The notes: generated by a model not told the origin, from the sequence alone. A stretch of DNA of 64,000 bases from Gracilimonas sp. (GCA_034520725.1 JAXHNH010000009.1:7252-71251), one strand, 5' to 3'; counted from the first letter of the stretch, positions 23,544 to 52,715 are shown. A program made the numbers and translations.

Positions 23544-23604
23544 ATGTTGAATGCTTAATTTTAAAAGTTAAATGAAGAGACTAACCATTTAACATTTAAA
23601 ATTA
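23541..23604. repeat. Period-7 AT-rich palindromic array between convergent tsaD and rnhA
   Basis: ttttaaaagttaaatg ... catttaacatttaaaa inverted arms built from (T)TAAATG-like heptamers. Confidence 0.6.
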
Positions 23605-24054
23605 TCTCACTGAAAATTTCTGCGAAGCTGCGACTGCCAGCTGATCTGCCCGTTCGTTTAATTCAATGCCAGCGTGTCCTTTTACCTTCACCCAAACTAC
23701 TTGGTGTGGTTTCATGGCTTTCAACATTTCCTGCCATAGTTCTTTGTTTTCAACCGGCTTTTTGTTGGATTTTCGCCAGCCGCGTTTTTGCCAGTTTTTG
23801 ATCCAGCCCTGTTCAAATGCATTGATGATAAGTGCGCTGTCGCTGTGGATCTTTACCAGGCACGGTTTTTTCAATGCCTTCAATGCCTCAATAACAGCCT
23901 GCATTTCCATCCGGTTGTTGGTCGTCTGAGGATCTCCTCCGGAAAGCTCCTTTTCGGTTCCATTCCACCTGAGAATAGCTCCCCAGCCACCCGGGCCGGG
24001 ATTTCCACTGCAAGCTCCGTCGGTATAAACTATGACTTCCGGTTTATTGGACAT
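23602..24054 (-). CDS. rnhA: Ribonuclease HI
   Basis: [42 protein letters not shown]. Confidence 0.97.
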
Positions 24055-24886
24055 ATTGAGCTGTAATCTGACTTAACTTTTGTTTCATGGTTTTTGCGGC
24101 ATTGGCAACGTGTTCAGGCCAGTCACTTTCGTCTTTACCGGCATATATAATGCCCCGGCTCGAATTGATAAGTGCCAGACCCTTGTGTTGTTTTAGTGCA
24201 CGTGTGAGCTCAGTTATTGAACCACCTTGTGCTCCGATACCCGGTATCAGTAAAGCACCTTTGGGGTGATAATTTAACACAGATTCAGCTTCATCAGCCT
24301 GAGTGGCACCAATGACCATACCCAGGTGTGATTTTGAAGAACCGGATCTCTTATTCAGCTTACTGGCAATAAACTGACTCATCATGTCATAACCGGAAAA
24401 CGGCTTCTTCAAAAAATCATTCGCACCGGTATTTGAAGTTAGTGTGAGGACATAAATGCCTTTCGTCTCATCTTTAGAAAAAGCATCAAGTGTCTCGAAT
24501 CCCATCAGTGGATTAAGGGTGATGGCATCTACATTAAATTTATCCCAAAATGCATTTTTATAATGTTCGGCTGTAGAGCTGATATCACCGCGCTTTGCAT
24601 CAGCGATAATGATCTTATCGTTCGGAATATGTTCTATCACTTCTTTAAAAACAACCAATCCATTTGGCCCCAAAGCTTCAAAAAATGCCAGGTTAGGTTT
24701 GTAAGCTGCACAATGATGAGCCGTGTAATTGACCACAAGTTTACAGAAATAGGTGACCTGTTCTTCAGGTGTCTCGAATTGATCTTTTACAGGGTTTGGA
24801 AGCAGATTTAAATTTGGATCCAATCCCACGCAAAGGGTTGATCCGGTTTTTGAAATGGATGTTCGGAGTTTTTCTAAAAATGTCAT
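24044..24886 (-). CDS. pyrF: Orotidine-5'-phosphate decarboxylase (intact copy)
   Basis: [40 protein letters not shown]; real start ATG 24886 (MTFLEKL). Confidence 0.95.
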
Positions 24887-25324
24887 AGATGAAAATTTTT
24901 GAGGAAGATAACATTTCTCGCATCTAATATTTTGGTTGAAAAAATGATACGATAGAGACGATTTTTCGCCCGGGGTGTTACGGATAATCATTAACGACCG
25001 AAAATTAGCTACGGTTATCTTCTTGGCGAATTGGTTGCCAAAATCCGATTTAAGATCTCGCCTTTATGTATTATTGGGGCAGAGTTTCTATTGTCATAAA
25101 CTATATCTCGGGGTTACCAACATATTGCTCCTACAAAGTATTGGTTGTATAATATGCTGTTTGATCAAGTTTCATTCTTCAGACCACTAAATAATTATAT
25201 CTTCAAAACTCTTTCCCGAAACGGTCGGGCCATCACTATGTTTATACTTGTAAAAGCATTGGGTAGCAGGTTCAATTTTTTTAGTTTATCCTAGTGTACG
25301 CAACTATCCACCAAATAAGTTACT

Positions 25325-28300
25325 ATGAAACTATTTGATACCATTTCTTTAGCCCCTAAACTTCTTTTTATCGTTCTTTTTTCCTTATTAACAACAGATG
25401 TTGTTCTGGCGCAAAATGGCGATACGAATTCTGATTCGACAGAAGCAGAAGAACTCAATGAACTCCCACTGGAGCCCGGCCGTGAATTCTCTTTTGATCT
25501 TACGGAAGGCTCATGGATCTCACTAGATGTGAGTCCCGATGGCCAAACTATTGTTTTTGATTTTCTCGGAGACCTGTACACACTCCCGATGAGTGGTGGA
25601 GAGGCAACTCAGATCACCGAGGGAATGCAGTTTGATAGCCAGCCCAGATACAGTCCGGATGGCTCTAAGATCGCTTATATCTCGGATGCTTCAGGTGGTG
25701 AGGGAGTATGGTTTTATGATGTGAAAACAGAAGAAAATGAGCAGCTTACGAAAGGCAAAGACAATGAATATCAGTCGCCCGAATGGACACCGGATGGTCA
25801 ATATGTGATCGCTTCCAAAGATGATCCCGGTAACCACAAGATTTGGTTGTACCATATTGATGGGGGATCCGGAACTCCATTGGTTGACGAGCCCGGTAAT
25901 CTTCGCATGACCGAAGGTGCTTTTGGTGCGGATGAACGCTACGTGTGGTTCTCCAGAAGATCAGGAACCTGGAACTACAATGCATCGCTCCCACAGTATC
26001 AAATTGCGACCTATGATCGTGAAACGGGTGACATTAATACGCAAGGCGATCGATATGGATCTTCATTCCGTGCAACGCTTTCAAGTGATGGCAAATGGTT
26101 GGTATATGGAACGCGCCACGATGAGCACACTGGTTTAGTAAAACGTAATCTTGATACCGGGGATGAAAGCTGGTTAGCGTATCCGGTCCAGCATGACGAT
26201 CAGGAATCGCGTGCTTCGCGGGATGTACTGCCAGGAATGTCCTTCACCCCGGATAATAACCATGTTGTGACTTCTTATGATGGAAAGATTTGGAAGCTTC
26301 CCATTGATGGTGGTGATGCTGTTGAGATTCCCTTCAGAGTAAGAGGCACTATCGAACTGGGACCTGAGCTTGATTTCGATTATCCAATAGAGGACACCTC
26401 TCAGTTTGAGATTACTCAGATCAGGGATGCTGTACCTTCCCCCGATGGAAATAGAATTGCTTTTACAGCTTTGAATGAGATATACACGATGGAATTGCCG
26501 GATGGTGAACCCCGCAAATTGGTGGATGTGGATGAAACACAGGCCCAGCCCGTTTGGTCACCCGATGGTGAATGGATCGCTTTTGTAACCTGGACACCGG
26601 AAACAGGAAAACTGTATAAAGTTCGCCCTAATGGCAGGCGTCTTCAGCAACTGAATGAGGAAGAAGGTGTGTTTCAGGATCCTGTTTGGAATAACGCAGG
26701 TGATCGAATTGTGGTTATCAAAGGTCTGCCACAGGATTTCCGGAATGCAACACAAAGGTCTGCCTTTCAGGGAACAAGTGATTTGATCTGGATCGATGCG
26801 GATGGCAGTGAAAATAATTTCATCACTTATACCAATGGACGATCTAATCCACACTTTGTGAAAGGATCTGACCGGATCTACCTCTCAAGCTGGGGAGGAT
26901 TGACCTCCATCAGATGGGATGGAACTGATGAGAAAGAGCATCTTGAAGTAAACCGAAACGGTGGTGGAAATGCATCATGGATACGTATGGCACCTGAAGG
27001 TGATCAGGCACTGGCTCAGATCGGGACCGATCTCTTTGTTGTGACAGTGCCACAGGTTGGGGGTGAAGCTCCGGACATTAGCGTAGGAGGCTCCTCAAGT
27101 GCTTTTCCAAGCCTGAAATTAACGGATATTGGTGGGCAATTCCCTGCATGGGCTTGGGATGCCAATAAAATTCATTGGTCCATCGGTAATGCTCATGTGA
27201 TCTATGATCTTGTAGCCCAAGAAGTCTACAGTGATAGTCTGGAAGCTGTCAAAGAAATGGAGGAAGAGAAAGAGGATCCCAAAACTGATGATGAGGAAGC
27301 TGACGAAGAAGAAGATGAAAAGAAAGATGAAGGTTATAAACCTTTGGAGATTCGAATCAGTGTCATGGCCGACCGTGATATTCCTGAAGGTGTCATGGTA
27401 CTTCGTGGGGCCAAGGTTATCACCATGAATGGTGACGAGATCATTGAAAATGCTGATCTGGTGATCGAAAATAATCGCATCACAGATGTGGGCGCGAGAG
27501 GGGAAGTTGAAATACCATCCGGCGCCGAGATCAAGGATGTATCCGGAAAGACGATCATTCCCGGATTTGTAGATACTCATGCTCACTTTCGTCACCCTGT
27601 GAATTTGCACCGCGGCGAATTCTGGAGTTACATGACGAATTTGGCGTATGGTGTTATCACCACAAGAGACCCACAGACTGCGACTACCGATGTATTGACG
27701 TATCAGGATCTGGTTCATGCCGGAAAACTGTTGGGACCCAGAGTGTACTCAACCGGTCCCGGAGTGTTCAGCAGTGAGAATATCAAAGACCTTGATCATG
27801 CCCGCGAGGTAATGAAGCGGTACAGCGATTATTACGATACCAAAACCATTAAAATGTATGGAGCGGGTAACCGTGAACAGCGTCAGTGGATCATTCAGGC
27901 CTCAAAGGAAGAAGAGTTGATGCCTACTACTGAAGGATCGCTTGATTTCAAGGAAAACCTGACTCAGGTCATTGATGGGTATCCGGGGCACGAGCATTCA
28001 TTCCCGGTATTCCCACTTTATCAGGACGTGATCGATCTGGTGGCGTTTTCCAGAACGGTTTACACGCCAACCTTGCTGGTTGCTTATGGCGGACCGTGGG
28101 CAGAGAATTACTATTATGCAACCGAACGCCCGCATGATGAGACAAAACTGCAGAGGTTCATGCCACATCAAAATCTGGATGAACGAACCCGTCGCAGAAA
28201 TGCGGGATGGTTCATGGAAGAAGAGCATGTATTTGAAGAACTATCGGTATTTGTAAAAGACCTGGTGGAAGCCGGTGGCCGCGCAGGTGTGGGAAGTCAT

Positions 28301-28645
28301 GGGCAGCTGCAGGGACTCGGTTATCACTGGGAGCTATGGGCTATGCAGGCCGGTGGAATCTCTGAGCATGACGTTCTAAAGGTTGCAACCATTCAGGGTG
28401 CTGAGGCAATTGGACTGGATACTGATCTTGGAACTATCGAAGAAGGAAAGTTAGCTGACTTATTGATCCTGAACAGTGATCCCCTGGAAGATATCCGCAA
28501 TTCAAAAGATCTTGAATACATCATGAAGAACGGATATATGTACGAAGCAGAAACGCTGAATGAGGTATTCCCGAATCAGAAAGAATTACCAACCTTCTGG
28601 TGGCAGAATACGGAGCCGGCAGGAGTTCCCGGAGTAGAAAAATAG
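25325..28645 (+). CDS. Secreted amidohydrolase with TolB/PD40 beta-propeller repeats
   Basis: Signal peptide; LDVSPDG/SPDG repeats; IPGFVDTHAH; GSHGQLQG; GTIEEGKLADL. Confidence 0.9.
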   Translation: MKLFDTISLAPKLLFIVLFSLLTTDVVLAQNGDTNSDSTEAEELNELPLEPGREFSFDLTEGSWISLDVSPDGQTIVFDFLGDLYTLPMSGGEATQITEGMQFDSQPRYSPDGSKIAYISDASGGEGVWFYDVKTEENEQLTKGKDNEYQSPEWTPDGQYVIASKDDPGNHKIWLYHIDGGSGTPLVDEPGNLRMTEGAFGADERYVWFSRRSGTWNYNASLPQYQIATYDRETGDINTQGDRYGSSFRATLSSDGKWLVYGTRHDEHTGLVKRNLDTGDESWLAYPVQHDDQESRASRDVLPGMSFTPDNNHVVTSYDGKIWKLPIDGGDAVEIPFRVRGTIELGPELDFDYPIEDTSQFEITQIRDAVPSPDGNRIAFTALNEIYTMELPDGEPRKLVDVDETQAQPVWSPDGEWIAFVTWTPETGKLYKVRPNGRRLQQLNEEEGVFQDPVWNNAGDRIVVIKGLPQDFRNATQRSAFQGTSDLIWIDADGSENNFITYTNGRSNPHFVKGSDRIYLSSWGGLTSIRWDGTDEKEHLEVNRNGGGNASWIRMAPEGDQALAQIGTDLFVVTVPQVGGEAPDISVGGSSSAFPSLKLTDIGGQFPAWAWDANKIHWSIGNAHVIYDLVAQEVYSDSLEAVKEMEEEKEDPKTDDEEADEEEDEKKDEGYKPLEIRISVMADRDIPEGVMVLRGAKVITMNGDEIIENADLVIENNRITDVGARGEVEIPSGAEIKDVSGKTIIPGFVDTHAHFRHPVNLHRGEFWSYMTNLAYGVITTRDPQTATTDVLTYQDLVHAGKLLGPRVYSTGPGVFSSENIKDLDHAREVMKRYSDYYDTKTIKMYGAGNREQRQWIIQASKEEELMPTTEGSLDFKENLTQVIDGYPGHEHSFPVFPLYQDVIDLVAFSRTVYTPTLLVAYGGPWAENYYYATERPHDETKLQRFMPHQNLDERTRRRNAGWFMEEEHVFEELSVFVKDLVEAGGRAGVGSHGQLQGLGYHWELWAMQAGGISEHDVLKVATIQGAEAIGLDTDLGTIEEGKLADLLILNSDPLEDIRNSKDLEYIMKNGYMYEAETLNEVFPNQKELPTFWWQNTEPAGVPGVEK

Positions 28646-28708
28646 TGTTATAGTGTTAAAGTGTTAACGAAAAAACGGTAACACTTTAACACCTTAGCAC
28701 CTTATCAC
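28644..28708. repeat. Period-8 palindromic array between convergent genes
   Basis: GTGTTA at 28645/28653/28661 and TAACAC-like units at 28679/28687/28695/28703. Confidence 0.75.
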
Positions 28709-29376
28709 TATAAAACCGTCTCAGGGTGGACTTCTTCAAACCCATGAGGGGGACGATCTAGTGTCCAGGTTTCGAAATAGAAATGGCGTTCAGTGTTGAA
28801 CTTCTTTCCATTGATGCTGAAAAAGCGAAAATGGTCCGGCACTAATTTTTGCAATGGAAAGAACATATTGCGATACACGTTTTTTTTGGAGAATATCTGA
28901 AGGTCAAAACCATCTTTTGACAGAACTTTGTAAATAACGATATGCCCGTCATCTATGGTTTTCCTTAACGCTTCTTTGTGGTAACCATTATCTGAATCCT
29001 TAATAATGTGAAGTTGAGATATATTCTCTGCGAAATCTTTCTCTTCAGTAAGTATGATAGTTTCTCCAATATCCAAAGCCTGTATTGCGTCCTTTAGTGA
29101 GGGGAATTCGGATTTGTGTGTGAATATATTTGCTCCCTTAAAAGCTGTCTCAAGTGCATTGATGAGTTCTTCGTAGGCTGAAAGAACATTCAATCCAAAA
29201 CGCTCTTCATTCAGGTCGGTTCCGGTAAAGTAGAATCTGGAGTAGGTGGGGTCAGGCTTCATAAAATCCTGAAGCGAAGAGGCCATTTGTTTTGGGCTTT
29301 CAGATGCTTTTTGTTTACTCAGTTTATCAAGTCTCTGATCGTGATGGAAAATGAGTTTGAATATATTTGTAGTCAT
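28708..29376 (-). CDS. Hypothetical protein, intact copy A
   Basis: 222-aa ORF; homologous copy at 33273-33934; C-terminal YFETWTLDRPPHGFEE. Confidence 0.75.
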   Translation of the reverse strand: MTTNIFKLIFHHDQRLDKLSKQKASESPKQMASSLQDFMKPDPTYSRFYFTGTDLNEERFGLNVLSAYEELINALETAFKGANIFTHKSEFPSLKDAIQALDIGETIILTEEKDFAENISQLHIIKDSDNGYHKEALRKTIDDGHIVIYKVLSKDGFDLQIFSKKNVYRNMFFPLQKLVPDHFRFFSINGKKFNTERHFYFETWTLDRPPHGFEEVHPETVL

Positions 29377-29388
29377 GTAAGAAAGACC

Positions 29389-29571
29389 TTAACAACAATT
29401 TTCGATTCTATTGAACAATTCTTCGACAAAGCCTTCATGTTCCGGTTTCATGAAGACACTTCGTAAGATGGTGACGTCCTCAGCATTTACTTCGAAATCA
29501 GGGTGGTGTTTAGTAAATGCCTTTACCGGGATATTGTATAACGAAAGGTAAAATGAACGCTCCTTCATTCC
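29389..29571 (-). pseudogene. 3' fragment of a PLP-dependent decarboxylase fused to truncated pyrF
   Basis: MKERSFYLSLY...EDVTILRSVFMKPEHEGF matches the C-terminus encoded at 38562-38750. Confidence 0.85.
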
Positions 29572-29997
29572 TTTTTCTTCATACTTGGCAAAAGATTCGA
29601 GGGTCTCAAATCCCATTAGTGGGTTTAAATTGATAGCATCTACATCAAAATTTTCAAAAAAGGTTTTTTTATAATGCTCGGCGGTAGAGCTGATATTGCC
29701 TCTTTTGGCATCTGCAATAACAATTTTATTGTCAGGAATATGGTTTATGACTTCCTCTAACACCTCGAAACCCTTGCTGCCCAATGCTTCGAAAAAGGCT
29801 AAATTTGGTTTGAAAGCTGCACAATATTCAGCAGTGTAGTCGATAATAAGCTTGCAAAAAAAGAAACTTAATCTTTGGGTTTATCGAACTGATTTTTTTA
29901 CCGGTTGCGGAAGTAAATCCAAATTGGGATCCAATCCCACACACAAGGTAGATTTGCTTTCTGCTATGCATTGCTGCAGTTTGTTGATATACGTCAT
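29567..29997 (-). pseudogene. pyrF: 5' half of a second, diverged pyrF
   Basis: MTYINKL...[11 protein letters not shown]...DAKRGNI; two compensating homopolymer frameshifts and an in-frame TAA; truncated at codon ~143. Confidence 0.9.
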
Positions 29998-30068
29998 AGG
30001 CTGCGAATAATTTTTTGACTGAAGAGAACATTATTCAAGCGAAATGCAGGAGAAACAAAGAGCTTCAA

Positions 30069-30203
30069 TTAACCGCAATTGCAGTCAGGCCCACAGTTAT
30101 CTTTACATTTTTTCCAGGGAAGATGTTTTCCTGCCACCTTCATGAAAATGTAACCGGCACTCAGTACAAATAGGGAAAAAGCAATTATAGTTTGAAAATC
30201 CAT
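30069..30203 (-). CDS. FeoB-associated Cys-rich small membrane protein
   Basis: 44 aa MDFQTIIAFSLFVLSAGYIFMKVAGKHLPWKKCKDNCGPDCNCG; ATG overlaps the feoB TAA. Confidence 0.8.
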   Translation of the reverse strand: MDFQTIIAFSLFVLSAGYIFMKVAGKHLPWKKCKDNCGPDCNCG

Positions 30204-32335
30204 TAAAATAAATGTGCTGTTTGAAAGGTGATAAATGAAGAGATGTAGGCCAGGCCCGTCATGTAGAATACCATAATAAGCGGCCATTTCCAGGAATTGG
30301 TTTCCCGGCGAACTATAGCGAGGGTACTCATACATTGCATAGCCAGTGCAAAAAAGACCATGAGCGACAGAGCAGTGGCTGTGCTGTACACAGGTTTGCC
30401 GGTTTCTTGGTCCACATCATTTATTAATTTCTGTTTTAAGGTGGTTACTTCTCCGTCATCTCCCTCAATACTGTAAATAGTATTTAAAGTTCCCACCATG
30501 ACTTCACGGGCTGCAAATGAGGTGATCAGGCCAATGCCAATTTTCCAGTCGAACCCGAGAGGTTCAATAACCGGTTCAATAAAATGCCCGAATTTACCCG
30601 CATAACTATTCGTAAGCTGATAAGTCTCTTCGCTTATTTCAGGCGAGCCCGTGGATGAAATGGCAGAAGAATCAGCCATATTCGTTTGTACAGGTAATTC
30701 AGTTTTAGGGAAGGAGGCTAAAAACCAAAGTACAATTGAAATGGCAATAATGATTCTTCCCGCTTCAGAAACAAATACCCAGCCCCTGTCAAAAACGTTA
30801 CGAAATACAGATGACCATTTAGGCATTTTGTAATCAGGAAGTTCCATAATAAACGGACTCTTTTTTCCTTTGATGAGAAACTTGTTCATCACCAGCGCAA
30901 CAAGAACGGCCATTACAATGCCAAAAAAGTACAGGCCAAAAAATGTCAATCCCTGCAGATCGATGTAGCCAATTACTGGGGTTTTTGGGATAAAAGCTGC
31001 AATCAGTAAAGCATAAACCGGCAGTCGGGCCGAGCACGACATGAATGGCAAAACCATAATAGTGATAATTCGGTCGCGCCAGTTTTGAATATTCCTAGTG
31101 GCCATGATGCCGGGAATAGCACAAGCAAATCCAGACATCAGCGGGACAACAGAACGGCCGTGCAATCCAATTTTTGACATGAACCCATTCATCACAAAAG
31201 CGGCCCGGGCCATATACCCGGTACCTTCAAGAATGGATATAAAGAAAAAGAGAATCACAATTTGGGGCAGGAAAATTACTACACCGCCCAAACCGGCTAC
31301 AACACCCTCAACCAGTAATTCTGAAAGCATGCCTTCCGGTAAATTTGCGGATAGCCAGTTTCCCATGCTTATGAAAAACACATCAATCATATCCATGAAA
31401 GGAGTGGCCCAGGTAAAAATTGCTTGAAACATGAGCAAAAGAATAAGCACGAAAGTAACTGGGCCTAATACTTTGTGTGTAGTAATGGCATCAATCCGGT
31501 CAGTGATGGTTACTTTATCCCGATTAGTTCGCTCGATAGCCGATTCCGTACAAGAGCTGATATAATCGTAGCGGTTCATAACTTCAAGCGCAGCAGGATT
31601 TTTACCTGCTTTTATGATGATATCATGTGCCTTTCGGACTATTTCATTAATAAATTCATCATTTTGAGACTCCTCATCCATATTACTTATCAGGCGAAGA
31701 GCTTCAATAGTGTAAACTTTTTGAGGAAGATCGGTATGCGGTTTTATCCACTCATTGGTGACTAAATCTATAGCCTGCTTTAAAGAAGGATCAGGGTACC
31801 ATTGCAGAGGTTTCGGAGCCGTTAATTCTGCCTGTTGAATGGAATCCGTTACTTTTTTGAAGCAGGTCCGGTTCTTAGCCGAGATGGGCACAACGGGAAT
31901 TCCAATTTTTTGCTGAAGGAGCTTAGTATTGATGCTGATACCTTTTGATTTAGCTACATCCATCATATTGAGAACTAAAATAGCTGGAAGGCCGAGATCA
32001 AGAATTTGTGTAGCCAAAAATAAGTTACGGTCCAGGTTGCTGGCATCTGCAATTATCAATACGAGATCAGGCTTTTCCTCGTATTCAAATTCTCCAGTCA
32101 GGGTTTCACGGGTAACCCGTTCATCCAGTTTTTGGCTGTGAAGGCTATATGTGCCGGGAAGATCAATGATGGTATGTTTTTGATCGGCTATCTTTGCAAC
32201 ACCGGCTTTTCGTTCAACGGTAATACCCGGATAGTTTCCGATTTTTTGCTTTAGCCCCGTTAAGCCGTTAAATACGGTAGTTTTTCCAGTGTTAGGGTTG
32301 CCAACTAAAGCAATATTCAGTGATTTAGTATTCAA
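30203..32335 (-). CDS. feoB: Ferrous iron transporter FeoB
   Basis: GNPNTGKT, GNYPGITVE, DLPGTYSL, NMMD, PFMSCSARLPVY, QCMSTL. Confidence 0.97.
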   Translation of the reverse strand: MNTKSLNIALVGNPNTGKTTVFNGLTGLKQKIGNYPGITVERKAGVAKIADQKHTIIDLPGTYSLHSQKLDERVTRETLTGEFEYEEKPDLVLIIADASNLDRNLFLATQILDLGLPAILVLNMMDVAKSKGISINTKLLQQKIGIPVVPISAKNRTCFKKVTDSIQQAELTAPKPLQWYPDPSLKQAIDLVTNEWIKPHTDLPQKVYTIEALRLISNMDEESQNDEFINEIVRKAHDIIIKAGKNPAALEVMNRYDYISSCTESAIERTNRDKVTITDRIDAITTHKVLGPVTFVLILLLMFQAIFTWATPFMDMIDVFFISMGNWLSANLPEGMLSELLVEGVVAGLGGVVIFLPQIVILFFFISILEGTGYMARAAFVMNGFMSKIGLHGRSVVPLMSGFACAIPGIMATRNIQNWRDRIITIMVLPFMSCSARLPVYALLIAAFIPKTPVIGYIDLQGLTFFGLYFFGIVMAVLVALVMNKFLIKGKKSPFIMELPDYKMPKWSSVFRNVFDRGWVFVSEAGRIIIAISIVLWFLASFPKTELPVQTNMADSSAISSTGSPEISEETYQLTNSYAGKFGHFIEPVIEPLGFDWKIGIGLITSFAAREVMVGTLNTIYSIEGDDGEVTTLKQKLINDVDQETGKPVYSTATALSLMVFFALAMQCMSTLAIVRRETNSWKWPLIMVFYMTGLAYISSFITFQTAHLF

Positions 32336-32345
32336 CTATTGACCT

Positions 32346-32567
32346 CTATAATTCAATTTCAATACAACTTGCTTCTTCTTCGCGAAGTGAAAGTGAATAT
32401 CCGCGGATTTTTATTTCCATAGGAAAACCAAGGGGCGCCGTTCGAATTATCTCGATTTCTGAACCTGGTAAGATGCCCATTTGTAAAAGCCGTGGAGCCA
32501 AATCGCCAGTCACATTTTTTACTTTACAATAGTCCGGTTCGTGTTTATCAGATAAGGTTTTAGCCAT
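32346..32567 (-). CDS. feoA: FeoA protein
   Basis: RLLQMGILPGSEIEIIRTAPLGFPMEIKIRGYSLSLR. Confidence 0.92.
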   Translation of the reverse strand: MAKTLSDKHEPDYCKVKNVTGDLAPRLLQMGILPGSEIEIIRTAPLGFPMEIKIRGYSLSLREEEASCIEIEL

Positions 32568-32579
32568 GGAACTATTGTG

Positions 32580-32804
32580 TTATTGCGAGCTGATAAGAAT
32601 AGATTTTGCCAGGTTTTCACTAATGGCGAGCCGTGTTTCTCCAATTTTGAGAATTACACGGGAGTGGTTTGATAATACTTCTCCGGTAACACCTTCCACA
32701 CAACCCAAAGCCTGCAGCTGACAGGTATCTTCCCGGCTGCATCCAAGGCATTGTATAAAAACTCTTTCGCCTTTTTTGGTGCTATTAATTGGCTTCAACA
32801 TCAT
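32580..32804 (-). CDS. feoA: FeoA-like protein (Cys-containing)
   Basis: QLQALGCVEG...VILKIGETRLAI; first gene of the feo operon. Confidence 0.75.
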   Translation of the reverse strand: MMLKPINSTKKGERVFIQCLGCSREDTCQLQALGCVEGVTGEVLSNHSRVILKIGETRLAISENLAKSILISSQ

Positions 32805-32823
32805 CCTATCTCAAAATCATAAC

Positions 32824-32846
32824 TTATTTAAATACATTCTAAATAA
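32824..32846. promoter_or_regulatory. Putative Fur-type iron operator
   Basis: Dyad TTATTTA-AATACATTC-TAAATAA 20 nt upstream of the feo operon. Confidence 0.6.
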
Positions 32847-33191
32847 ACAAATCAAATATGAAAATTTAGTGAAGACATTTTCAACTGTATTCCTAAAACC
32901 TGAGTTCGAATAAATAGGTTTGTATAGTAAGTGAATAGATTAGCTTTAGAGAAACTGCGATCGTCTCCCGAAACTCGGAACAGCGTTCTGCAACAACGCT
33001 AGCACCCCGATTCTCGGGGAGACGCAACGAGGTTGCTTAAAGATCCACCTACCATACTTGCTAATGAATTTTAGAATCAAATCCAGGTATATATGAAAAA
33101 TCTGGTGGTTATTCTGCAGCGTTGGCTCGTATTTACCCCTTAGGGGAAACCGAATTAGTTTCAAAATCAGCTGATTTTCTGGCAAGAATAA

Positions 33192-33215
33192 GATAGCTGC
33201 CTGCGCAGAAATGAC
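33192..33215. repeat. Degenerate REP-like palindrome
   Basis: gatagctgcctgcgcagaaatgac resembles GTCATTCCTGCGCAGGCAGGAATC-type REPs (reverse strand). Confidence 0.4.
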
Positions 33216-33272
33216 TTTAACGATCTTTTTCTTGAGTCGAACTACTGCTGGAAAGATGGTAGTTTTTCTTTT

Positions 33273-33934
33273 TTAAAGTACGGTTTCAGGGAAAACTTCT
33301 TCAAAACCATGCGGAGGTCGGTTAAGTGTCCAGGTTTCGAAATAGAAATGGCGTTCAGTGTTGAACTTCTTTCCATTGATGCTGAAAAAGCGAAAATGGT
33401 CCGGCACTAATTTTTGCAATGGAAAGAACATATCGCGATACACGTTCTTTTTGGAGAATATCTGAAGGTCAAAACCATCTTTTGACAGAACTTTGTAAAT
33501 AACGATATGGCCGTGATCTATGGTTTTCCTTAACGCTTCTTTGTGGTAACCATTATCTGAATCCTTAATAATGTGAAGTTGAGATATATTCTCTGCGAAA
33601 TCTTTCTCTTCAGTAAGTATGATAGTTTCTCCAATATCCAAAGCCTGTATTGCGTCCTTTAGTGAGGGGAATTGGGATTTGTGTGTGAAAATATTTGTCC
33701 CCTTAAAAGCTGTCTCAAGTGCATTGATAAGTTCTTCGTAGGCTGAAAGAACATTTAATCCAAAACGCTCTTCATTCAGGTCGGTTCCGGTAAAGTAGAA
33801 TCTGGAGTAGGTGGGGTCGGTTTCATGAAATCCTGAAGCGAAGAGGCCATTTGTTTTGGGCTTTCAGATGCTTTTCGTTTACTCAGTTTATCAAGTCTCT
33901 GATCGTGATGGAAAATGAGTTTGAAATCTTGCAT
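33273..33934 (-). pseudogene. Hypothetical protein, copy B, frameshifted
   Basis: Aligns over its full length to 28708-29376; single 1-bp deletion near 33818 (cc-gac vs cctgac). Confidence 0.85.
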
Positions 33935-34150
33935 AAATTATTGTTTGAGTTGTGATATTTACAAGGTAGACTAATGAAATTAATGGAGTGCATGAAGAGA
34001 AGTACTTTGTCTAAATTTTATACTCTTTTACTATTTATAACATCCAATTTTTGTTTTGATGACAATTGTGATAACAATTTTTTATTGTTAGCTGTTAAAA
34101 ATGTATAAGTATTTATAACTAGAGACAAAGTAATTTCCAAAAATAGATTT

Positions 34151-37057
34151 ATGGATATTAAGATCGTTGTGAAGCGTGTACTATTGATTATGGATATTTA
34201 GCGTCTACGCCAACGAAGCATTTTCTCAAAACGAAGCAGTTCATATTTCTGGGAGGGTTTTCAGGTACGCGCAAAAGATTGATAGAAGACGCTTCAATAC
34301 AAGTTTTGTCAATTGACTGGATGAACAATCTATAGAGGCATCTCCAACTAGAAAAAACGGTACGTTTGATTTCATTTTACTTACCAAATACCATTTAAAA
34401 TTATTATTACATGCATCATTTCGCCCATATGAAGTAGTTATAAATGAAAGAGAGGAGGGTAGAAATTTAAGCATACCTCTTAGACCAAATATTTTAGGTG
34501 AGGATGTTTTTGTTACGGCTCCTTTAGTGACTAGGGAGGAATTAAAAAAAGAACCAAAACCATTGATAAAATTAGTACAGTAGAGGATTCAACAGCTCGC
34601 TTCATTTGATGTTGAATCATTGGTGTCAACTCTAAGAGAAGTTGATGTTGGGGTTTAAAGTATGACGATGCAGTCGGTAAACACTCGGGGTTTCAATGCA
34701 AGCTGTAACAAACGATTTTTGCAGTTGACTGATGGAATTGATAATCAGGCTCCAGGTTTAAGTTTTCCTATTGGGAACCTTATGGGTTGCCGGATTTAGA
34801 TGTGGCATCAGTCGAAGTACTTCCCGGACCCTCTTCAACACAATATGGATCAAGTGCTTTAAAATGGAGTAATGATCATGACCGGTAGAGATCCATTTGA
34901 GATTCAAATAATTCCACTTCCAAAGCAAAGACCGGTGTAAATGATTTTAACCTAAACGGAAGTACTTTTTTCTTGCTGATGGTAATGGGATGTATAATTT
35001 TCAGGGAAGATACGCTAAGTCATTCGCTGATAAATTTGCAGTTAAAGTTACCGTGTTTTCACGCAGGGAACTCATTGCAATGCCGAAAATTATGATAATA
35101 TTGGTTACGGGCGAATTCTACAAGACACCCTGAGCAGCCCGTTATAATGGGGTAAATGTATATGGTGATGAAAGTTTTGTTTATCAACAAGTATATAGTG
35201 AAGCTGAAGCATATCGGGATCAATTTGGAATGATATAATTCCTCCGGCTCAATATGGTCCGGTTACAAGAACCGGATACCGGGAAGAGAACCTGGTTAAT
35301 TACGATATTGAAACAATACGTGTTGCCGGAAATCTACAATATAAATTTACCGACAACTACCGTTTGAAAATTGGCGGGAAATATGGCCTAACAAATTCTC
35401 TTTATACAGGTGATAGCAACATCGCCTTGAAGAATTTAGTATGTATCAAACGAATGTGGAATTAGCTCTTGAACAGGTTGAATATTTTGGGTTATACAAC
35501 ATGGCAGAATTCCGGGAATTCATATGATGTTACATCTTTGGTTAAGTTCTTGATTCAGGCTGCCAAATCTGATACTGATTGGTATCGTGATTTTAGGGTA
35601 GCTTATGAAAACGGATTTCCGGTATTTGGAGTGCCACCAGGAAATGTTATAGAGGCCAGAAAATTTGCTGACAGTGGCAACACCTTATTGACAGGAAGAG
35701 AGGCGAACCCAAGATACGAGCCGGGTACCCCTGAGTTTCAACAAAAAGTAAATCAAATAATTAATAGCACTGATCCTGTGAAGGGTGCAGCAATACGAGA
35801 CAACTCTCTACTTTATCACCTGCAATCGAATTATGAGTTACCTGAAGTTCTAACAAATACTGATTTTAGCATAGGTGCAAATTTTAGATACTATGATATA
35901 TTTTAGAGGTACAATTTTTCCAGACACGGCAGGAAATGACATTACAAATTATGAATATGGTATGTTCATAAGTATGGAGACAGCCCTACTCAAAGGCGAT
36001 TTAAATATTAATTCAGCCGTTAGATTTGATAAAAATAAAAATTTTGAACCAAGATTAAGTCCTCAAACATCAATGAACTATAACATGAATGAGGATCATT
36101 TTTTTAGATTTTCATTTCAGCACGGGTCCAGATACCCCGGAGTTCGAGAGCAATTTGTGAATAATAATTTAGGTTCGGCCTTACTGCTTGGCGGTTTGTC
36201 AGAAAATCTAGCTCAATATGATTTTCAAGAAAATGCCATTACTCTTGATGCCGTAAATGGATTTAATGAGGCTGTAAGTGAGCGATTAAACGAGTCTCCT
36301 AGTAGTCCCGAGGCCTATAACAGGTTCCAGGCAGAAATTGAAAATCTGCATATTCTTCAGGACGGAATCGTTCAAGCTGATCAGCTACTTAACATAAATC
36401 CAGAGGTTGTAAATACTTTTGAGATCGGATATAAAAGATTATTTACGCCTGAATTATATCTTGACCTTAATTATTATGTAAGTTTTGATAAAGATTTTAT
36501 CGGAGTTACAAGAGAATTGTAAAACCCCGAACAAGTCCCACCGAAGATTTATTGGTGGCTTCAGGCCAAATAAATAGTAGCTTGGAAAGCGAAAAGGTAT
36601 TATGTGTATAGCAATGCAAGGGATCAGTTAATGGTACAGGGAGCATCTTTTGCACTTGATTATATTTCCGGTGGGTTTCTTATGAGTTTAAATGGAAGTT
36701 ATTCGAAGTTATTGCAGAAGTCTCAGATGATTCCCATAACACCTGGTTTTAACACTCCTCCATTTAAGATGAATTTTGAAATGGGGACATCGGGCGATCG
36801 CTGAAAATGTTGGGTTTAAAATGACCTACCGACTTAGAAGTCAATATTATTGGGAAAGCTCGTTTCTTGATGGGCCTATTGATACTTATGGGCACTTTGA
36901 TTTTCAATTTAATGTTGGAATACCAACTGTTCAAAGCACTATTAAATTCGGCGTTACAAATATTGGAATAAAAGAATATTACAATATTTATGGTGGTCCC
37001 TCAATTGGGTCAATATTGTTTGCTACGCTCAACTTTAATCCAAAAATGTTTCAGTAA
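34151..37057 (+). pseudogene. Decayed TonB-dependent receptor
   Basis: Plug motifs across frames (SVNTRGFNAS.NKRFLQLTDGIDNQAPG, VEVLPGPSS.QYG), barrel remnants, C-terminal F; many frameshifts and nonsense codons; visibly AT-rich. Confidence 0.85.
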
Positions 37058-37059
37058 TA

Positions 37060-38539
37060 ATGATGAATGTGAGAAAATACATTATTAGGAATTACGATAG
37101 GCTTAATTTTAATCAGCGGTTGCTCTTATGAATTTCCATCATCAGCTTCTGAAACAGATTTCAATCTTGAAAATGCGAATTTAGAGTCAATGACCATTTT
37201 GGGTAGTTCTATTTCTGCAGGTTTTATGGATGGCGCTTTGTATGGGAATGGACAGAAAGACTCATATGGTTCCTGATTGGCAGAATTGTTAGAGCTAGGA
37301 TTATCTCAAAATATTCATACTCCATTAACTGTAAACAGTGAAAATGGATTTAATACATTTTTAGAGAATAATACCGGTAATGAAGGGAGGTTTTACCTTT
37401 CATTCCAAAGTCCAACCGAAGACTGGCCGGTCGTTTTACTAAAGAAGGAAATCCAATTTCCGATTTCAATGGAGATCTTTCATCTGTAAGTAACTTTAGC
37501 ATACCTGGATTAAAAGTTTATCAGATCGACGATGCCTCATTGCTTTCAGGGAATCGTTATTATGATCGCATAACAGAAAAAGGAGCAAATCAAAGTATAC
37601 TCGATTTAGCATTAAATAATAATCCTTCGATCTTAATACTGTAACCGGAACCGAGGACATTTTTGGTTATGCTATTTCAGGAGCTGTTGGTGATACCTGC
37701 TCCTGCTTCCATTTCAGCTTCAGATATTGATTTGACTTCAAAATCTATATTTGAGCAAGAGTTGAATGATGTAGTGGATAGAATAATGAATGAATCCTCT
37801 GCAGATTTATTTTTATTAAATATTCCTGATCCATTAATTCTGCCATATTTTACAACTATATCTTGGTTCTATTCTTCTGAAGAATGGGAAGATAGTGGTT
37901 CGATAGTGGAATTCTTAGTGGGGTGTATGATTCTTTCAATACCCGAGTTCAAGAATACAATCAGGGTCAGGATTTCAGCGATCGCAGACCACTTATTACA
38001 TTTGATAGTGATGGTGGGCGTAGTTTTAGGGCAAAGGTAATTGAAGATGAATACTTAATTGATGCTACGGATAACCAAGGACAGGAAATACCTAAATGGC
38101 GGCAAATGTCAGACAGAGATTATTTTGCTTACAATGTTGAAAAAATTCACATTGAAAGTCTTGCGAATCCTCCTGTTTTAGGTTCTTATACGCCAATTCA
38201 AGATAGATATGTAAAAAGTAGAGGCGAAGCGGATCTAATTACAGAACGGAGGAATAGTTTTATTCTGACCGATTGCTAGCTATTGCCGGTAACAAACCCG
38301 TGTTCATTTAATAGAGCTTTGATAGCCTTTTAAAGTATTCGAGATCGACTAATAATGTACAATGGGGTGACATATAGTTTTGATTTTGATAATAGGGCAA
38401 TCATACTCTGCCGATGGAATTACACATGAATGCCAGGGGACAAGCTTTATTGGCAAATGAAATCATCAAAGTATTTAACGATACTTTTGCTACAACTATA
38501 GAATCAATCGATGTAATAATCAGAGAGGAACTGAAATAA
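37060..38539 (+). pseudogene. Decayed SGNH/GDSL-like lipoprotein
   Basis: Reconstructed LILISGC lipobox, ILGSSISAGFMDGALY block I, DG.HMNARGQALLANEII block V; multiple lesions. Confidence 0.75.
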
Positions 38540-38561
38540 CGAATCGAGTTCAATCTTCTCT

Positions 38562-39925
38562 TCATTTGAAACCGGTTGTGTGAATTCTGCCAAATAACTC
38601 TTCAGCAAAACCTTCATGCTCCGGTTTCATAAATACACTTCTTAGGATCGTTACATCCTCGGAATCAACTTTGAAATTCGGAGTGAAGTTTAGTGAAAGC
38701 TTTGGCCGGAATCCGATATAAGGAAAGGTAAAAAGACTGTTCCTTCATTCCATGATCAAAGATCTCTTTAGACGTTTCGAAGAGATCTGCTGAAGTAGTT
38801 TATACATCTGAGGGAAAATAGCCCAGGATATCAAGTTCAGGTTTTTTGTAAGAGGTTTAAATTTTGAACTTGAATTGGTCAGTATCATGCATCTTGAGTG
38901 CTGCATTGCGACACTTGGCAAGAATTGGCCCAAATCCATCTTTCTCCTTTCTAATGGGAACAACTGGCAGTGTTGCCCAGAAGCGCTGACAGCCGCTGCT
39001 CCAGCCCTGGAACATTCCAGGCTGATCTCTCCCAGATGGAGATCTTCCGAAGTAAAATAAGTATAAGGAGAGTCATGTTTATAAAACTTTCCAACACGCA
39101 GGATCTTTAAATAGCACACATCCACAACCATAAGGCTGAAGTCCGTGTTTATGTGGATCAACGACGATACTATCGGCGTGTCCTGCATCAAATTCCAGGA
39201 AGTTCCGTCAATTAGTTCAGTATCTTTCAGTGTTCGAAAAAACCTCCGTATGCAGCGTCAATATGGATCCGTATGCCATGCTCGTTGGCCCATGGAAGAA
39301 TCTGATCCAGTGGTTCCACCTCACCAAGTCCGGTAGTGCCTAAGTGTGACCACCATAGTGCCGATCTCGTCTGGATCGACAGCATTCAGGTCAAAGGTTC
39401 CATTCATCTGACACCGGGATCTTGACTCCTTCAACCCTAAGAACAGAGCACATGCGTTCATGCGTATAATGTGCCTGTTCAGAAAACGCGATCTTTTTAT
39501 GTGGATGAGATTCGCGGGCTATCCAAAGGGCCTCAAGGTTCGCAATGGTACCGCTGGCAGTCAGGTGTCCCAGATAAGTATCACCGTAACCAAAAAAACG
39601 AGCCAGTTCAGCAACGGCTTCTTTTTCCATTTCTGAGGATGGTGGCCCGCCATCCAGCGCATGATTATTTGGGTTGATAGACATTGCCATGGCGTAGGCC
39701 GCCCAAGCTAATGGGTGAGGAGGTTTGAGCATCTGTCCGGCATAGGATGGGTGCTCAAAAGGATAATTGCACTTTAAACGCTGAGTCAAATGAGTGAAAA
39801 CTTCATTCGCTTTTTCTTTCTGAAACACTCAGAGACTCGTCGGGCGTCCAATTACCAAATGAATCGATCCATTCGTTAATGGATTGAATACCATTTCGCA
39901 GTGATTTTTCGGAGAGAGTATCCAT
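38562..39925 (-). pseudogene. Group II PLP-dependent decarboxylase pseudogene
   Basis: [32 protein letters not shown] (PLP Lys), SLECSRAG distributed over frames; at least 6 frameshifts/stops; ATG 39925 overlaps the upstream stop. Confidence 0.9.
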
Positions 39926-40800
39926 TAGTACAAGCTAACTGAGATTCCTGCTGAAAGAACCTGCTTTAACTGAATTTCACTGGAAAAATCGTTGTCATAT
40001 CTCAATTCAAACTGAAAGGAAGCACTTATAAGGCTGTTAATTTTTCCAACCAGTTCATTGCCCCACATAACATCTGTTTCATCAATTGGTATCAAAAAGT
40101 TAGTGAAGGTTTCCAGTCCACTCGTATATAGAATATTTTCAAAAACTTCCTTCTCGTAATAAATACCGGTTGTCAAACCACCCTCAGACCTGAAATTATC
40201 ACCCGGGTCAAGTCCATATTGGGGAGCCAGGGCATCTTCTGTGACAAATGTCTGTTTCAACCCAAGACCCGCTTCAAATATTATGGCTGGTGCGGGTTTG
40301 TAAGATAAACCCACGCTTTCAGAAAGATAACCCGGAGCCATAAAGTTAGAGATCAGAATATCAGGATCGCTATCGATTTCACCATATTCAAAACCACGGT
40401 CAAACTGTGTTCTAAAAATAATGGTAGCATAACTTGAAAGAGTACCGTCTTTCCTGAACAGATAATTAAATCTGTTTGTAATAGAGATCAGGTCATCAGT
40501 TTTGCGAACACCATCATCCTTCACTTTGGATTGGCCGTATTTCAGATTGGTTCTGAATCCATAGCTATACAGGCCCTTTCTAAACATCAGTGTGTAAACG
40601 GATGAAGCTGTTCCACTGAGCGTGCTAACACCACCCTGAGACCAGTTGCTATAGGCAGCTTGCGAACCGTTCATATTTGCCACCCATGATTGAGCCCAGC
40701 CACTGAGGGTATCAGGAACAGAGACATTTTGTGCCTTTGCGGTAGCGCTGAATACCAGCATTAAGGCTAGAATGGTAAATTTTTTGATCAATTTATTCAT
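39925..40800 (-). CDS. DUF3078-like outer-membrane beta-barrel protein
   Basis: Signal peptide; SQAAYSNWSQGG; RKTDD; FRTQFDRGF; QLKQVLSAG..LY. Confidence 0.8.
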   Translation of the reverse strand: MNKLIKKFTILALMLVFSATAKAQNVSVPDTLSGWAQSWVANMNGSQAAYSNWSQGGVSTLSGTASSVYTLMFRKGLYSYGFRTNLKYGQSKVKDDGVRKTDDLISITNRFNYLFRKDGTLSSYATIIFRTQFDRGFEYGEIDSDPDILISNFMAPGYLSESVGLSYKPAPAIIFEAGLGLKQTFVTEDALAPQYGLDPGDNFRSEGGLTTGIYYEKEVFENILYTSGLETFTNFLIPIDETDVMWGNELVGKINSLISASFQFELRYDNDFSSEIQLKQVLSAGISVSLY

Positions 40801-47664: not shown

Positions 47665-47686
47665 AGCTTAGCTAAGCAAAAAATTC

Positions 47687-47722
47687 AAAGCCCCGTGCAT
47701 AACTCATGCACGGGGCTTTTTT
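47687..47722 (+). terminator. Rho-independent terminator
   Basis: aaagccccgtgcat-aactc-atgcacggggctttttt. Confidence 0.9.
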
Positions 47723-47811
47723 ATGGCTTTAATTTCTGAAAAATGGTGTTTCCTTATTTCATACAGAAATGAAAGGTCAACCAACTAAAAACATAACACG
47801 TATTCCATGAC

Positions 47812-47851
47812 CTGCCCGTAGAGGCGCGATGCGTCGCGTCTCTACGGGCAG
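47812..47851. repeat. GTAG-tagged REP palindrome
   Basis: ctgcccgtagaggcgcga-tgcg-tcgcgtctctacgggcag: 18-bp stem with one G-T pair. Confidence 0.75.
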
Positions 47852-47954
47852 AATCAAGATTGTTTTTATCGATGTTTGAAGAACTAAAAAAAGAACCTTT
47901 TACACCTGAAATTCATTGTACTAATACAATCGAAACTAATACAGGAGTACAATT

Positions 47955-48539
47955 ATGGCAGCTAAGAAAATATTAATGATCGTTGGAGATTATGGAGAAG
48001 ACCTTGAGATCATGGTGCCCTTTCAGGCATTGCAGATGGTTGGGCACGAAGTTCATGCGGTTTGCCCGGATAAGAAAAAAGGAGATACCTGTCCAACAGC
48101 AGTGCATGATTTTGTGGGAGACCAAACCTACAAAGAATTAAGGGGTCATAACTTCACGCTGAATTATGATTTTGATAAAGCAGATCCTGCAGATTATGAT
48201 GCTTTGGTTCTGCCCGGCGGACGTGCCCCTGAATATCTCCGTTTGAATGATGAGGTTGTTTCTAAAGTGAAGCACTTCCTAGATGAGGACAAGCCCATTG
48301 CCGCTATTTGCCACGGACTTCAGATCTTTGCGAAAACAGGTGGCATTGAAGGGAGAACGTTAACAGCCTATCCTGCCTGCGGACCAGAAATGGAAGCTTG
48401 TGGTGCCAATTATAAAGAAGTGCCGCCTACAGAAGCCGTAGTTGATGGAAATCTTGTTACCTCACCAGCATGGCCCGGACATCAAAAATGGCTGGCAGAA
48501 TTTCTGAAGGTGTTGGGAACAGAGATCACACATAAGTAA
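47955..48539 (+). CDS. DJ-1/PfpI-family protein
   Basis: [32 protein letters not shown]. Confidence 0.92.
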
Positions 48540-48547
48540 GACATGTT

Positions 48548-48574
48548 TCGCTCCAACGCAGAGCGTAGGAGCGA
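48548..48574. repeat. REP-like palindrome with GCAGAGCG core
   Basis: tcgctcc-aacgcagagcgta-ggagcga. Confidence 0.7.
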
Positions 48575-48615
48575 GTTAGGTAAATTCTATTTCTGACAAT
48601 TTAAAATTGGCTAAC

Positions 48616-50130: not shown

Positions 50131-50175
50131 AATTTATTTACTGAATTTTTAGGAAGATAGGGAAGTAAGCAGTTA

Positions 50176-50266
50176 GAATACAGGGAGTGAATATCCAATA
50201 TCGAACAAGGAATATTAAACACTGAAGTTTTTTATTCCTGTATTCTGAATTCTGAGTTCTGTATTC
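50176..50266. repeat. Period-7 palindromic array (GAA arm / TTC arm) between divergent genes
   Basis: GAA/CAA/AAA at 50189, 50196, 50203, 50210, 50217, 50224; TTC at 50243, 50250, 50257, 50264. Confidence 0.7.
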
Positions 50267-50273
50267 TTCCATC

Positions 50274-51053: not shown

Positions 51054-51098
51054 ACAGATTTTACCTATTTGGAAAGTTGGATTGGAATTGAACATGTT

Positions 51099-51167: not shown

Positions 51168-51308
51168 CAGTAATAATTTTGTGTTAAATCTGTCGGACTC
51201 GTTGCATAAGAGTTTATCATTAGCTTTATTTCGACAGACGTTCGTTATTCATCTACCTATATAATTATTGGCTAGTATTAACCTTCTTACAACCAAAACC
51301 TCCCCTCT

Positions 51309-52712: not shown

Positions 52713-52715
52713 AAA

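Follow-up and report, generated by a model that had tools for sequence, protein, structure and literature searches.

Tandem allelic forms of a pyrF-linked cassette locus in a Gracilimonas genome, probably stacked by one-sided illegitimate capture of foreign DNA

Two tandem blocks around pyrF

The window analysed here is a stretch of 64,000 nucleotides (nt) from the genome of Gracilimonas sp. (GCA_034520725.1, JAXHNH010000009.1:7252-71251). We refer to this 3.3-Mb genome as G000 (window, G000:C9:7252-71251); the contig that holds the window is 77 kb long, and all block coordinates are window positions. On the minus strand we find two partial copies of a decarboxylase > hyp > cargo > pyrF locus, placed in tandem and meeting in frame, where hyp is a conserved hypothetical gene and pyrF codes for orotidine monophosphate (OMP) decarboxylase. 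In minus-strand order, block 1 comprises a decarboxylase pseudogene, TonB and GDSL pseudogenes (both on the opposite strand), hypB, feoA, feoA, feoB, a Cys-rich open reading frame (ORF) and the 5′ half of a pyrF (pyrF′), and block 2 a decarboxylase tail (tail2), hypA, an amidohydrolase gene (opposite strand), an intact pyrF and rnhA. A preliminary description of this DNA had reported the same two diverged blocks, with genes and coordinates that all hold. We propose that they probably arose when foreign DNA was captured into the locus, with homology at one end only. The features are listed below from the right to the left flank, with the attributions to resident or foreign DNA that we argue for in the following sections.

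23602-24054, minus strand: rnhA, resident right flank; ORF of 150 amino acids (aa), 96% aa identity to the sister species G021
24044-24889, minus strand: resident, intact pyrF (OMP decarboxylase); Pfam PF00215, 1.6e-25; 89% aa identity to G021 and sister to it in the tree (100/99)
25325-28645, plus strand: PD40 beta-propeller/amidohydrolase of 1106 aa, resident cargo of the amid type; Pfam PF07676 and PF01979; 92.9% aa and 84-93% nt identity to G021
28708-29376, minus strand: hypA, intact conserved hypothetical gene of 222 aa with no Pfam family, the resident copy; 75% aa identity to G021, against 55-69% to others
29389-29571, minus strand: tail2, the orphaned resident 3′ end (last 59 codons) of a pyridoxal phosphate (PLP)-dependent decarboxylase gene; nearest to the G021 tail
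29566-29571, minus strand: illegitimate joint, a microhomology at which donor pyrF (K-G-I/M) and resident decarboxylase (H-G-M) share GGAAT(G), from a three-way alignment
29389-29784, minus strand: in-frame fusion ORF of the middle of pyrF′ and the decarboxylase tail, from ORF calls and an identical 124-aa product on contig L041; probably without function
29567-29997, minus strand: pyrF′, foreign, codons 1 to ~145, ending at the joint and containing a TAA and two indels that compensate each other; relatives in L081 and L082
30069-32804, minus strand: foreign feo cassette, all genes intact (Pfam FeoA, FeoB_N, Gate, FeoB_C), made up of the next four entries
32580-32804, minus strand: feoA1
32346-32567, minus strand: feoA2
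30203-32335, minus strand: feoB
30069-30335, minus strand: small Cys-rich ORF
33273-33934, minus strand: hypB, second hyp copy with one frameshift, hypA-like except for a diverged 3′ end that resembles feo-type alleles
34188-37054, plus strand: TonB-dependent receptor pseudogene, collinear with an intact 972-aa gene of G002
37097-38515, plus strand: GDSL-like lipoprotein pseudogene, collinear with an intact 494-aa gene of G002
38562-39925, minus strand: PLP-dependent decarboxylase pseudogene, apparently mosaic, with 10 frame-breaking indels and 1 stop
39925-40800, minus strand: DUF3078 outer-membrane-like gene, resident left flank; Pfam PF11276; 88% aa identity to G021

According to a repeat search and self-BLAST, pyrF and pyrF′ are 71% identical in nt (63% in aa over 145 aa), and the two decarboxylase tails, tail1 of block 1 and tail2, share 76% nt and ~75% aa identity. 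The 3.3-Mb genome has no additional copies, and exact-product look-ups for hypA, rnhA, the DUF3078 gene and a fragment of the decarboxylase pseudogene matched no record.

An in-frame joint with 5-6 nt of microhomology

In the three-way alignment the homology of pyrF′ stops at ...GAAAAAGGAAT and that of the decarboxylase starts at GGAATGAAGG, the changeover falling at 29571-29567 in frame, with flanks that are unrelated on either side. This alignment and an independent contig (below) both bear out the in-frame GGAAT fusion first described at 29567-29571. Because the corresponding position in the pyrF of several relatives has AAAGGAATT or AAAGGAATG, the overlap amounts to 5-6 nt, and this microhomology, devoid of flanking homology, lies within the 3-10 bp range of homology-facilitated illegitimate recombination (HFIR).

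When the fusion ORF was used as a query, an identical 124-aa product turned up on a Logan contig, SRR26473340_1923217 (L041), whose 2146 bp correspond to window positions 29110-31255 at 99.25% identity. L041 runs from the 3′ end of feoB through the Cys-rich ORF, pyrF′, the joint and tail2 to the 5′ end of hypA, and differs from the window by 16 single-nucleotide polymorphisms (SNPs), none of them within 300 nt of the joint. L052, a second Logan contig of run SRR26473340, matches 31526-33291, from just below hypB through feoA1 and feoA2 into feoB. The exact 31-nt pattern of the joint had no match in JGI metagenome contigs. The joint exists, as an independently assembled contig spans what the preliminary description had warned might prove to be unspanned. 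A genome in 26 contigs with 2.45% contamination could be suspected of holding a chimera of two co-occurring Gracilimonas populations, but we reject this as scarcely credible, because another assembler and a slightly different haplotype (the 16 SNPs of L041) give the same joint, with L052 covering the hypB edge into feoB, and because an overlap of 5-6 nt is too short for a k-mer assembler to misjoin on. In addition, block 1 is full of pseudogenes, and its truncated pyrF could not be the sole copy of a free-living donor.

Allelic forms of the locus in the genus

The locus was typed in 24 other species representatives of the genus (G001 onward), by taking 8-20 kb around the pyrF of each and mapping the window proteins onto these stretches. 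Every one of the 24 genomes has a single pyrF. The arrangement hyp-[amidohydrolase]-pyrF-rnhA, which we call amid-type, is present in 17 of them, and the feo-type arrangement hyp-feoA-feoA-feoB-CysRich-pyrF-rnhA in three (G006, G010 and G023); three others have neither cassette, and G021 alone has both in one block, which brings the amidohydrolase to 18/24 genomes at this site. Among the genus genomes checked, feoB occurs only in G006, G010, G021 and G023, each time at this locus (the whole-genome search covered G001-G016, G021 and G023 being seen through the locus mapping). The TonB receptor and GDSL genes were found in G002 alone of the genus genomes, where they are intact and lie between hyp and decarboxylase in the position and orientation of block 1. 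The hyp-pyrF interval is a cassette-polymorphic site, occupied by the amidohydrolase in most species, by feoA-feoA-feoB in some, or by neither, and the two blocks of the window therefore represent two natural allelic forms of one locus in tandem.

Block 2 and the outer flanks

A comparison of the whole 77-kb contig with G021, G004, G002 and G016, made in bins of 1 kb, has G021 as the closest of the four all along (76-92%, mean ~84), with G004 at ~78% and G002/G016 at ~72%. Tail2, hypA, the amidohydrolase gene and pyrF, together with rnhA and tsaD, are 84-89% identical in nt to G021, at the contig baseline and in the same synteny, and the left flank is at the baseline level as well (83-85% nt). 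Tail2 is 81.8% identical in nt to the G021 tail, against at most 70% for other genomes; both share the end RIENCC* and are sisters in the tree (95/97), and hypA follows the decarboxylase tail after 12 nt in G000 and likewise in G021. The synteny of block 2 is that of the 17 amid-type genomes. These identities and gene orders show that block 2 is resident, the amidohydrolase having been present beforehand and the pyrF never having been replaced.

The preliminary description had the opposite polarity, with the resident pyrF replaced and the amidohydrolase brought in, and neither claim survives the comparison. The intact pyrF is G021-like at the baseline level and pyrF′ is the foreign copy; the amidohydrolase, in G021 synteny and with the nt identity listed above, is resident. 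The incoming material comprises feo with the 5′ half of pyrF and, probably, TonB/GDSL together with the 3′ part of the decarboxylase. The claim that DNA from a related lineage is involved is upheld, the sources pointing to other lineages of the same genus (the L081/L082 clade, and G002/G016-like parts).

Elsewhere on the contig, the 500-nt bins at ~46250-48500, 50500 and 53250 show G000 nearer to G002/G016 than to G021, the difference reaching 9.4 points. The bins of this region (~46250-53250) may reflect further inter-lineage recombination tracts or merely very conserved genes.

Origin of pyrF′ and the feo cassette

When pyrF′ was read through its two indels and searched against 5.8 billion proteins, its best relatives were the intact 290-aa PyrF of L081 (90% aa identity) and that of L082 (80%), metagenomic feo-type alleles on a JGI contig from sample 3300040801 and a Logan contig from run SRR31660265, respectively; the resident PyrF reaches 66%. 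In nt, pyrF′ is 82.8% identical to the L081 pyrF. The gene order of L082 is hyp-feoA-feoA-feoB-44 aa-pyrF-rnhA-tsaD. L081 aligns with the window from 31519 to 29570 and L082 from 32875 to 29567, at 80% nt identity, and both alignments end at the joint. In the tree pyrF′ groups with L081 (99/89) and then with L081 and L082 (98/96), and an approximately unbiased (AU) test rejects its placement with the G000 and G021 pyrF genes (p=3e-5). It was the metagenomic relatives that gave this resolution: a tree of species representatives only left the position of pyrF′ inside the genus unresolved, with AU p=0.015 against pyrF′ and the resident pyrF as closest relatives.

The substitution pattern points the same way. 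Compared with L081, pyrF′ has a ratio of nonsynonymous to synonymous rates (dN/dS) of 0.018, and the ratio is ~0.1 with each pyrF of the genus; pyrF′ differs from the resident pyrF by dN 0.20 and dS 1.9, the dS between the G000 and G021 pyrF genes being 0.64. As a truncated fragment cannot evolve under such constraint, pyrF′ diverged as a working gene in another genome and was cut recently. In the FeoB tree the G000 protein has L082 as its sister (97/95) and the G021 protein falls with L081, a G000+G021 clade being rejected by the AU test (p=2e-4), and the identity of the feo region to G021 is only 73.5-76%. Taken together, these data show that pyrF′ and feo are foreign and come from other Gracilimonas lineages. 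The pyrF′ and FeoB trees and the dN/dS values lead us to reject a duplication within the lineage and to reverse the earlier polarity.

The spacer between hypB and feoA1 (32876-33272) is ~470 nt long, compared with ~100-140 nt in other feo-type alleles, and contains a 79-aa ORF without a Pfam family. Within it, 145 nt (32945-33089) are 71% identical to C24:14459-14603 and may be a small repeat or insertion.

Mosaicism and decay of the block 1 pseudogenes

The first ~500 nt of the decarboxylase pseudogene are sister to G021 (98/91), with a G002/G016 clade rejected by the AU test (p=4.5e-5), and the last ~600 nt group with G002 and G016 (89/71). Of 195 bins on the contig, the 3′ decarboxylase bins are among the three most extreme. 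A mosaic gene, with a resident 5′ part and a G002/G016-like 3′ part, is thus moderately supported by the trees and the bins.

No other decarboxylase copy was found in the G000 genome. The TonB and GDSL pseudogenes are collinear with the G002 genes at 62.6% nt identity, with 19 insertions, 19 deletions and 7 stops. Frame-breaking indels per kb amount to ~4.6 in pyrF′, 9.5 in the decarboxylase and ~7 in TonB/GDSL, and the decay of redundant genes noted earlier is confirmed; decarboxylase substitutions still show a dN/dS of ~0.05. The similar indel densities and the low decarboxylase dN/dS indicate that function was lost recently relative to species divergence, and roughly simultaneously across these genes. 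As regards the type of lesion, insertions account for 12 of the 13 indels of the decarboxylase pseudogene; they measure 1-3 nt, except for one of 6 nt at the end, and none is in a homopolymer. The TonB/GDSL spectrum is balanced.

Probable exchange between hypA and hypB

The two hyp copies are 96% identical in nt overall, a resemblance that the preliminary description does not mention; the value is 97.8% from hyp nt 16 to 617 and 69% in the final 52 nt. The C-terminus of hypB, EEVFPE, is of the L082 type and not that of hypA, the switch from hypA-like to L082-like sequence being at nt 617. In the L041 strain, hypA has hypB-type bases at hyp nt 186, 243, 244 and 252, keeps those of the hypA type at nt 65-123 and 213, and is a patchwork of hypA and hypB variants inside single 31-mers (L041 1860-2146 compared with window 29110-29376 and 33675-33925). 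This patchwork suggests ongoing gene conversion between hypA and hypB in the population. We also considered the 5′ edge of hypB as an illegitimate joint and dropped it, as hypB may have its own start region and the identity tract starts in a conserved patch. The start that reads MQDFKL is no more than a putative one, as the region around this ATG is degenerate and hypB may no longer have its original ATG.

A second scar in the sister species

In G021 (locus L021, G021:C1 11859-12100) the feo cassette is followed by 116 nt without a match, and these by the ~25 nt that end a resident-type hyp, with the hyp-amidohydrolase terminator behind them, although a full hyp lies upstream of feo. At this one site the cassette thus has a second illegitimate edge, different from that in G000. 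According to the FeoB tree, G021 gained feo independently of G000. Descent of both feo cassettes from a common merodiploid ancestor was considered and rejected, as the decarboxylase tail of G021 is orthologous to tail2 and not to tail1, and the two FeoB proteins are not closest relatives.

It is possible, although we regard it as doubtful, that two sister species have each stacked feo onto an amid-type allele through different illegitimate joints, which would make one-sided capture recurrent and selectively useful in wild Balneolota. The G000 joint would then lead from pyrF codon ~145 to decarboxylase codon ~387 and the G021 joint would lie 25 nt before the hyp stop, and the G000 product may be a duplication that arose through a bridge between two copies of the chromosome, a type of product not known so far outside laboratory pneumococci.

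One-sided illegitimate capture as the probable origin

Our preferred interpretation, to which we assign a probability of about 0.72, is a one-sided illegitimate capture of ~9 kb of foreign DNA into a resident amid-type locus, with an HFIR-like geometry. The ancestor of G000 would have had the amid-type allele decarboxylase-hyp-[amidohydrolase]-pyrF-rnhA and would have taken up DNA from another lineage with a feo-type allele, the fragment ending inside the donor pyrF at ~codon 145. This pyrF end would have been joined illegitimately to codon ~387 of the resident decarboxylase through GGAAT(G), and the opposite end resolved by homologous recombination in a shared gene. As a result, feo would have been gained, the amidohydrolase and the resident pyrF kept, and the resident decarboxylase 3′ end orphaned, with the now useless decarboxylase, TonB receptor, GDSL gene, hypB and pyrF′ left to decay.

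Resident and donor-like sequences share identical runs of at most 23-26 nt in hyp and decarboxylase and of at most 14 nt in pyrF. Donor and resident pyrF are too diverged (71% nt identity) for the pyrF end to recombine homologously, so that it would have been joined illegitimately. Every transition to the left of the joint falls inside homologous genes, namely the decarboxylase mosaic and hypB nt 617. An illegitimate microhomology join on one side and a homologous resolution on the other, as the preliminary description had suggested, thus remain the likely geometry, but the homologous side was misplaced at pyrF/rnhA and would lie on the decarboxylase/hyp side. We infer that the anchor gene of the event that formed the joint was either the decarboxylase or hyp. 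The obvious candidate for the route of DNA entry would be natural transformation; G000 has ComEC and DprA homologues, but so do 10 of 14 control genomes, so their presence is not specific.

The event may have taken two forms. In variant A, which we judge quite possible but short of an even chance, a single event anchored in the conserved core of the decarboxylase would have been followed by conversion of hypB by hypA; the donor would have carried decarboxylase 3′-GDSL-TonB-hyp-feo-pyrF 5′, and ~0.5-0.9 kb of the resident decarboxylase would have been replaced. In variant G, to which we give roughly one chance in three, a feo-type fragment would have been anchored in the conserved 3′ patch of hyp, with its illegitimate end 0.8 kb upstream of the crossover, at decarboxylase codon ~387, so that the tail and hyp were duplicated. 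An ordinary homologous import from a G002-like lineage would later have replaced the decarboxylase 3′ part and inserted TonB/GDSL. Variant G uses only observed allele types and explains the hyp identity tract directly; it also requires a bridging step between two chromosome copies.

Several observations weigh against a capture of this kind. No donor with the full gene order of block 1 was found, the known feo-type alleles (G006, G010, G023 and L082) having no decarboxylase beside hyp, and the contigs of the metagenomic feoB loci L083 and L084 are too short to display such a donor. The nearest donor relatives are only ~80-83% identical in nt. An empty-site conspecific allele, with an intact decarboxylase ending in tail2, was not found either (best match 78%), and to our knowledge natural competence is not known in this group. 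The interior of block 1 is mixed, with the decarboxylase 3′ part and TonB/GDSL being G002/G016-like and feo and pyrF′ L081/L082-like, and the AU test marginally rejects pyrF′ with G002/G016 (p=0.038), so that more than one event is likely. For the decarboxylase 3′ part the AU test does not reject G021 (p=0.26), and other bins of the contig also favour G002/G016. Finally, the 97.8% identity of hypA and hypB requires an extra step in variant A or G, and their differences are mostly synonymous (pS 0.067, pN 0.010), which neither variant predicts cleanly.

Three other histories have to be weighed against the capture. The polarity first proposed would have block 1 resident and block 2 imported, with a crossover at pyrF/rnhA that replaced the 3′ half of the resident pyrF. 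The geometry of the joint is symmetric, so its polarity is not readable from the joint alone, and block 2 does lie in the upper range of G021 identity (84-89% against a mean of ~84). We nevertheless consider this polarity very unlikely: the pyrF′ and FeoB trees place these genes in the L081/L082 clade and not with G021, the decarboxylase 3′ part and TonB/GDSL of block 1 resemble G002/G016, and it is the block 2 genes, rnhA and tsaD that are nearest to G021, at the baseline level and in the G021 order. An old tandem duplication within the lineage, from decarboxylase tail to pyrF 5′ half and followed by divergence and differential gene loss, is hardly to be believed. The layout resembles a tandem duplication with one novel joint, and the short tail alignment taken alone does not reject tail1+(tail2+G021) (p=0.43). 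However, the AU tests reject pyrF′ with the G000 and G021 pyrF genes, as given above, and tail1 with tail2 (p=0.025), so the two blocks do not group together; such a grouping was what the preliminary description had named as refuting it, and its view that this is no fresh self-duplication stands. Further, pyrF′ diverged under strong purifying selection and not neutrally (dN/dS 0.02-0.1, with dS 1.9 against 0.64), and all 24 other genomes of the genus have a single pyrF.

A sequence of ordinary steps is less improbable, though still unlikely. Homologous recombination, possibly after conjugation or transduction, would have produced a whole-allele merodiploid or swapped cassettes, and a later microhomology deletion or template switch would have fused pyrF′ to the tail. 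The two or more phylogenetic sources inside block 1 (at least two), the mosaicism elsewhere on the contig and the ongoing exchange between hypA and hypB are all consistent with such a history. It needs, however, a transient larger tandem structure of which no trace is left, and the joint links foreign directly to resident DNA; the second illegitimate joint at the cassette edge in G021 also fits a capture with one-sided homology better.

Relation to known recombination processes

HFIR combines one homologous side with one joint of 3-10 bp microhomology, and has been shown in the transformable bacteria Acinetobacter baylyi, Streptococcus pneumoniae and Pseudomonas stutzeri (de Vries & Wackernagel 2002; Prudhomme et al. 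2002; Meier & Wackernagel 2003; as summarised in PMC6382021). The event proposed here would be similar in that DNA from a diverged relative has one side in homologous sequence and the other at a microhomology of this size without flanking homology. It would differ from laboratory HFIR in being deduced from genomes, in the size of the block (~9 kb) and in the retention of the feo cassette by selection. Variant G departs further, as the illegitimate end would lie upstream of the crossover, with 0.8 kb duplicated and no recipient DNA deleted.

HFIR has also been proposed for orphan immunity genes and orphaned 3′ ends at the type VI secretion (T6SS), Rhs and contact-dependent inhibition (CDI) loci of Vibrio cholerae (PMC5361080). 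As in those arrays, an allele would have entered through a conserved upstream anchor and pushed the resident downstream part aside, leaving an orphan, which in G000 is the 3′ end of the decarboxylase and in G021 the 25 nt at the 3′ end of hyp; tail2 has the expected place of a displaced resident 3′ end, downstream of the incoming allele. Unlike at those loci, no toxin or immunity genes are involved (the genes being those of a PLP decarboxylase, a hypothetical protein, feoAB, an amidohydrolase and pyrF), the resident part retained includes a housekeeping pyrF and the amidohydrolase, and the exact microhomology joint and the donor-like alleles can be identified.

A third parallel is offered by Streptococcus pneumoniae, in which transformation reportedly generates merodiploids, in work ascribed to Johnston and colleagues in 2013. 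Under variant G a donor fragment would similarly bridge two recipient positions and produce a tandem duplication that later decays. The pneumococcal case uses a pre-existing repeat such as an insertion sequence (IS) element, and self DNA suffices, whereas here the bridge would be a microhomology of 5-6 nt and the donor foreign.

The locus is therefore a well-documented new example of a known process and involves no new mechanism. HFIR is well characterised in laboratory work, but it is much less common to find a natural scar that reveals the microhomology joint together with its resident partner and with donor-like alleles; in G000 all three are present, and the independent second scar of G021 accompanies them. 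The proposed history shows a route by which a genome can gain an alternative cassette, here for ferrous-iron uptake, without surrendering the resident one, the price being a decarboxylase put out of function and a merodiploid stretch in decay. There is also a hint that accessory loci in the Balneolota, a group for which we know of no studied genetics, are shaped by DNA uptake and by recombination across species boundaries, at sequence differences of 15-30%.

Other features of the neighbourhood

Between the convergent amidohydrolase and hypA genes, at 28645-28700, lies a 25-nt inverted repeat (84% complementary, with a 6-nt loop) that is kept in G004 and in the G021 remnant and probably serves as a terminator in both directions. 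The orf387-pyrR-DUF3078-decarboxylase block is inverted relative to hyp-pyrF in about half of the genomes of the genus, the two being ~5 kb apart (loci L023, L024, L031-L040, L048 and L050), and the whole neighbourhood is a rearrangement hot spot across the genus genomes.

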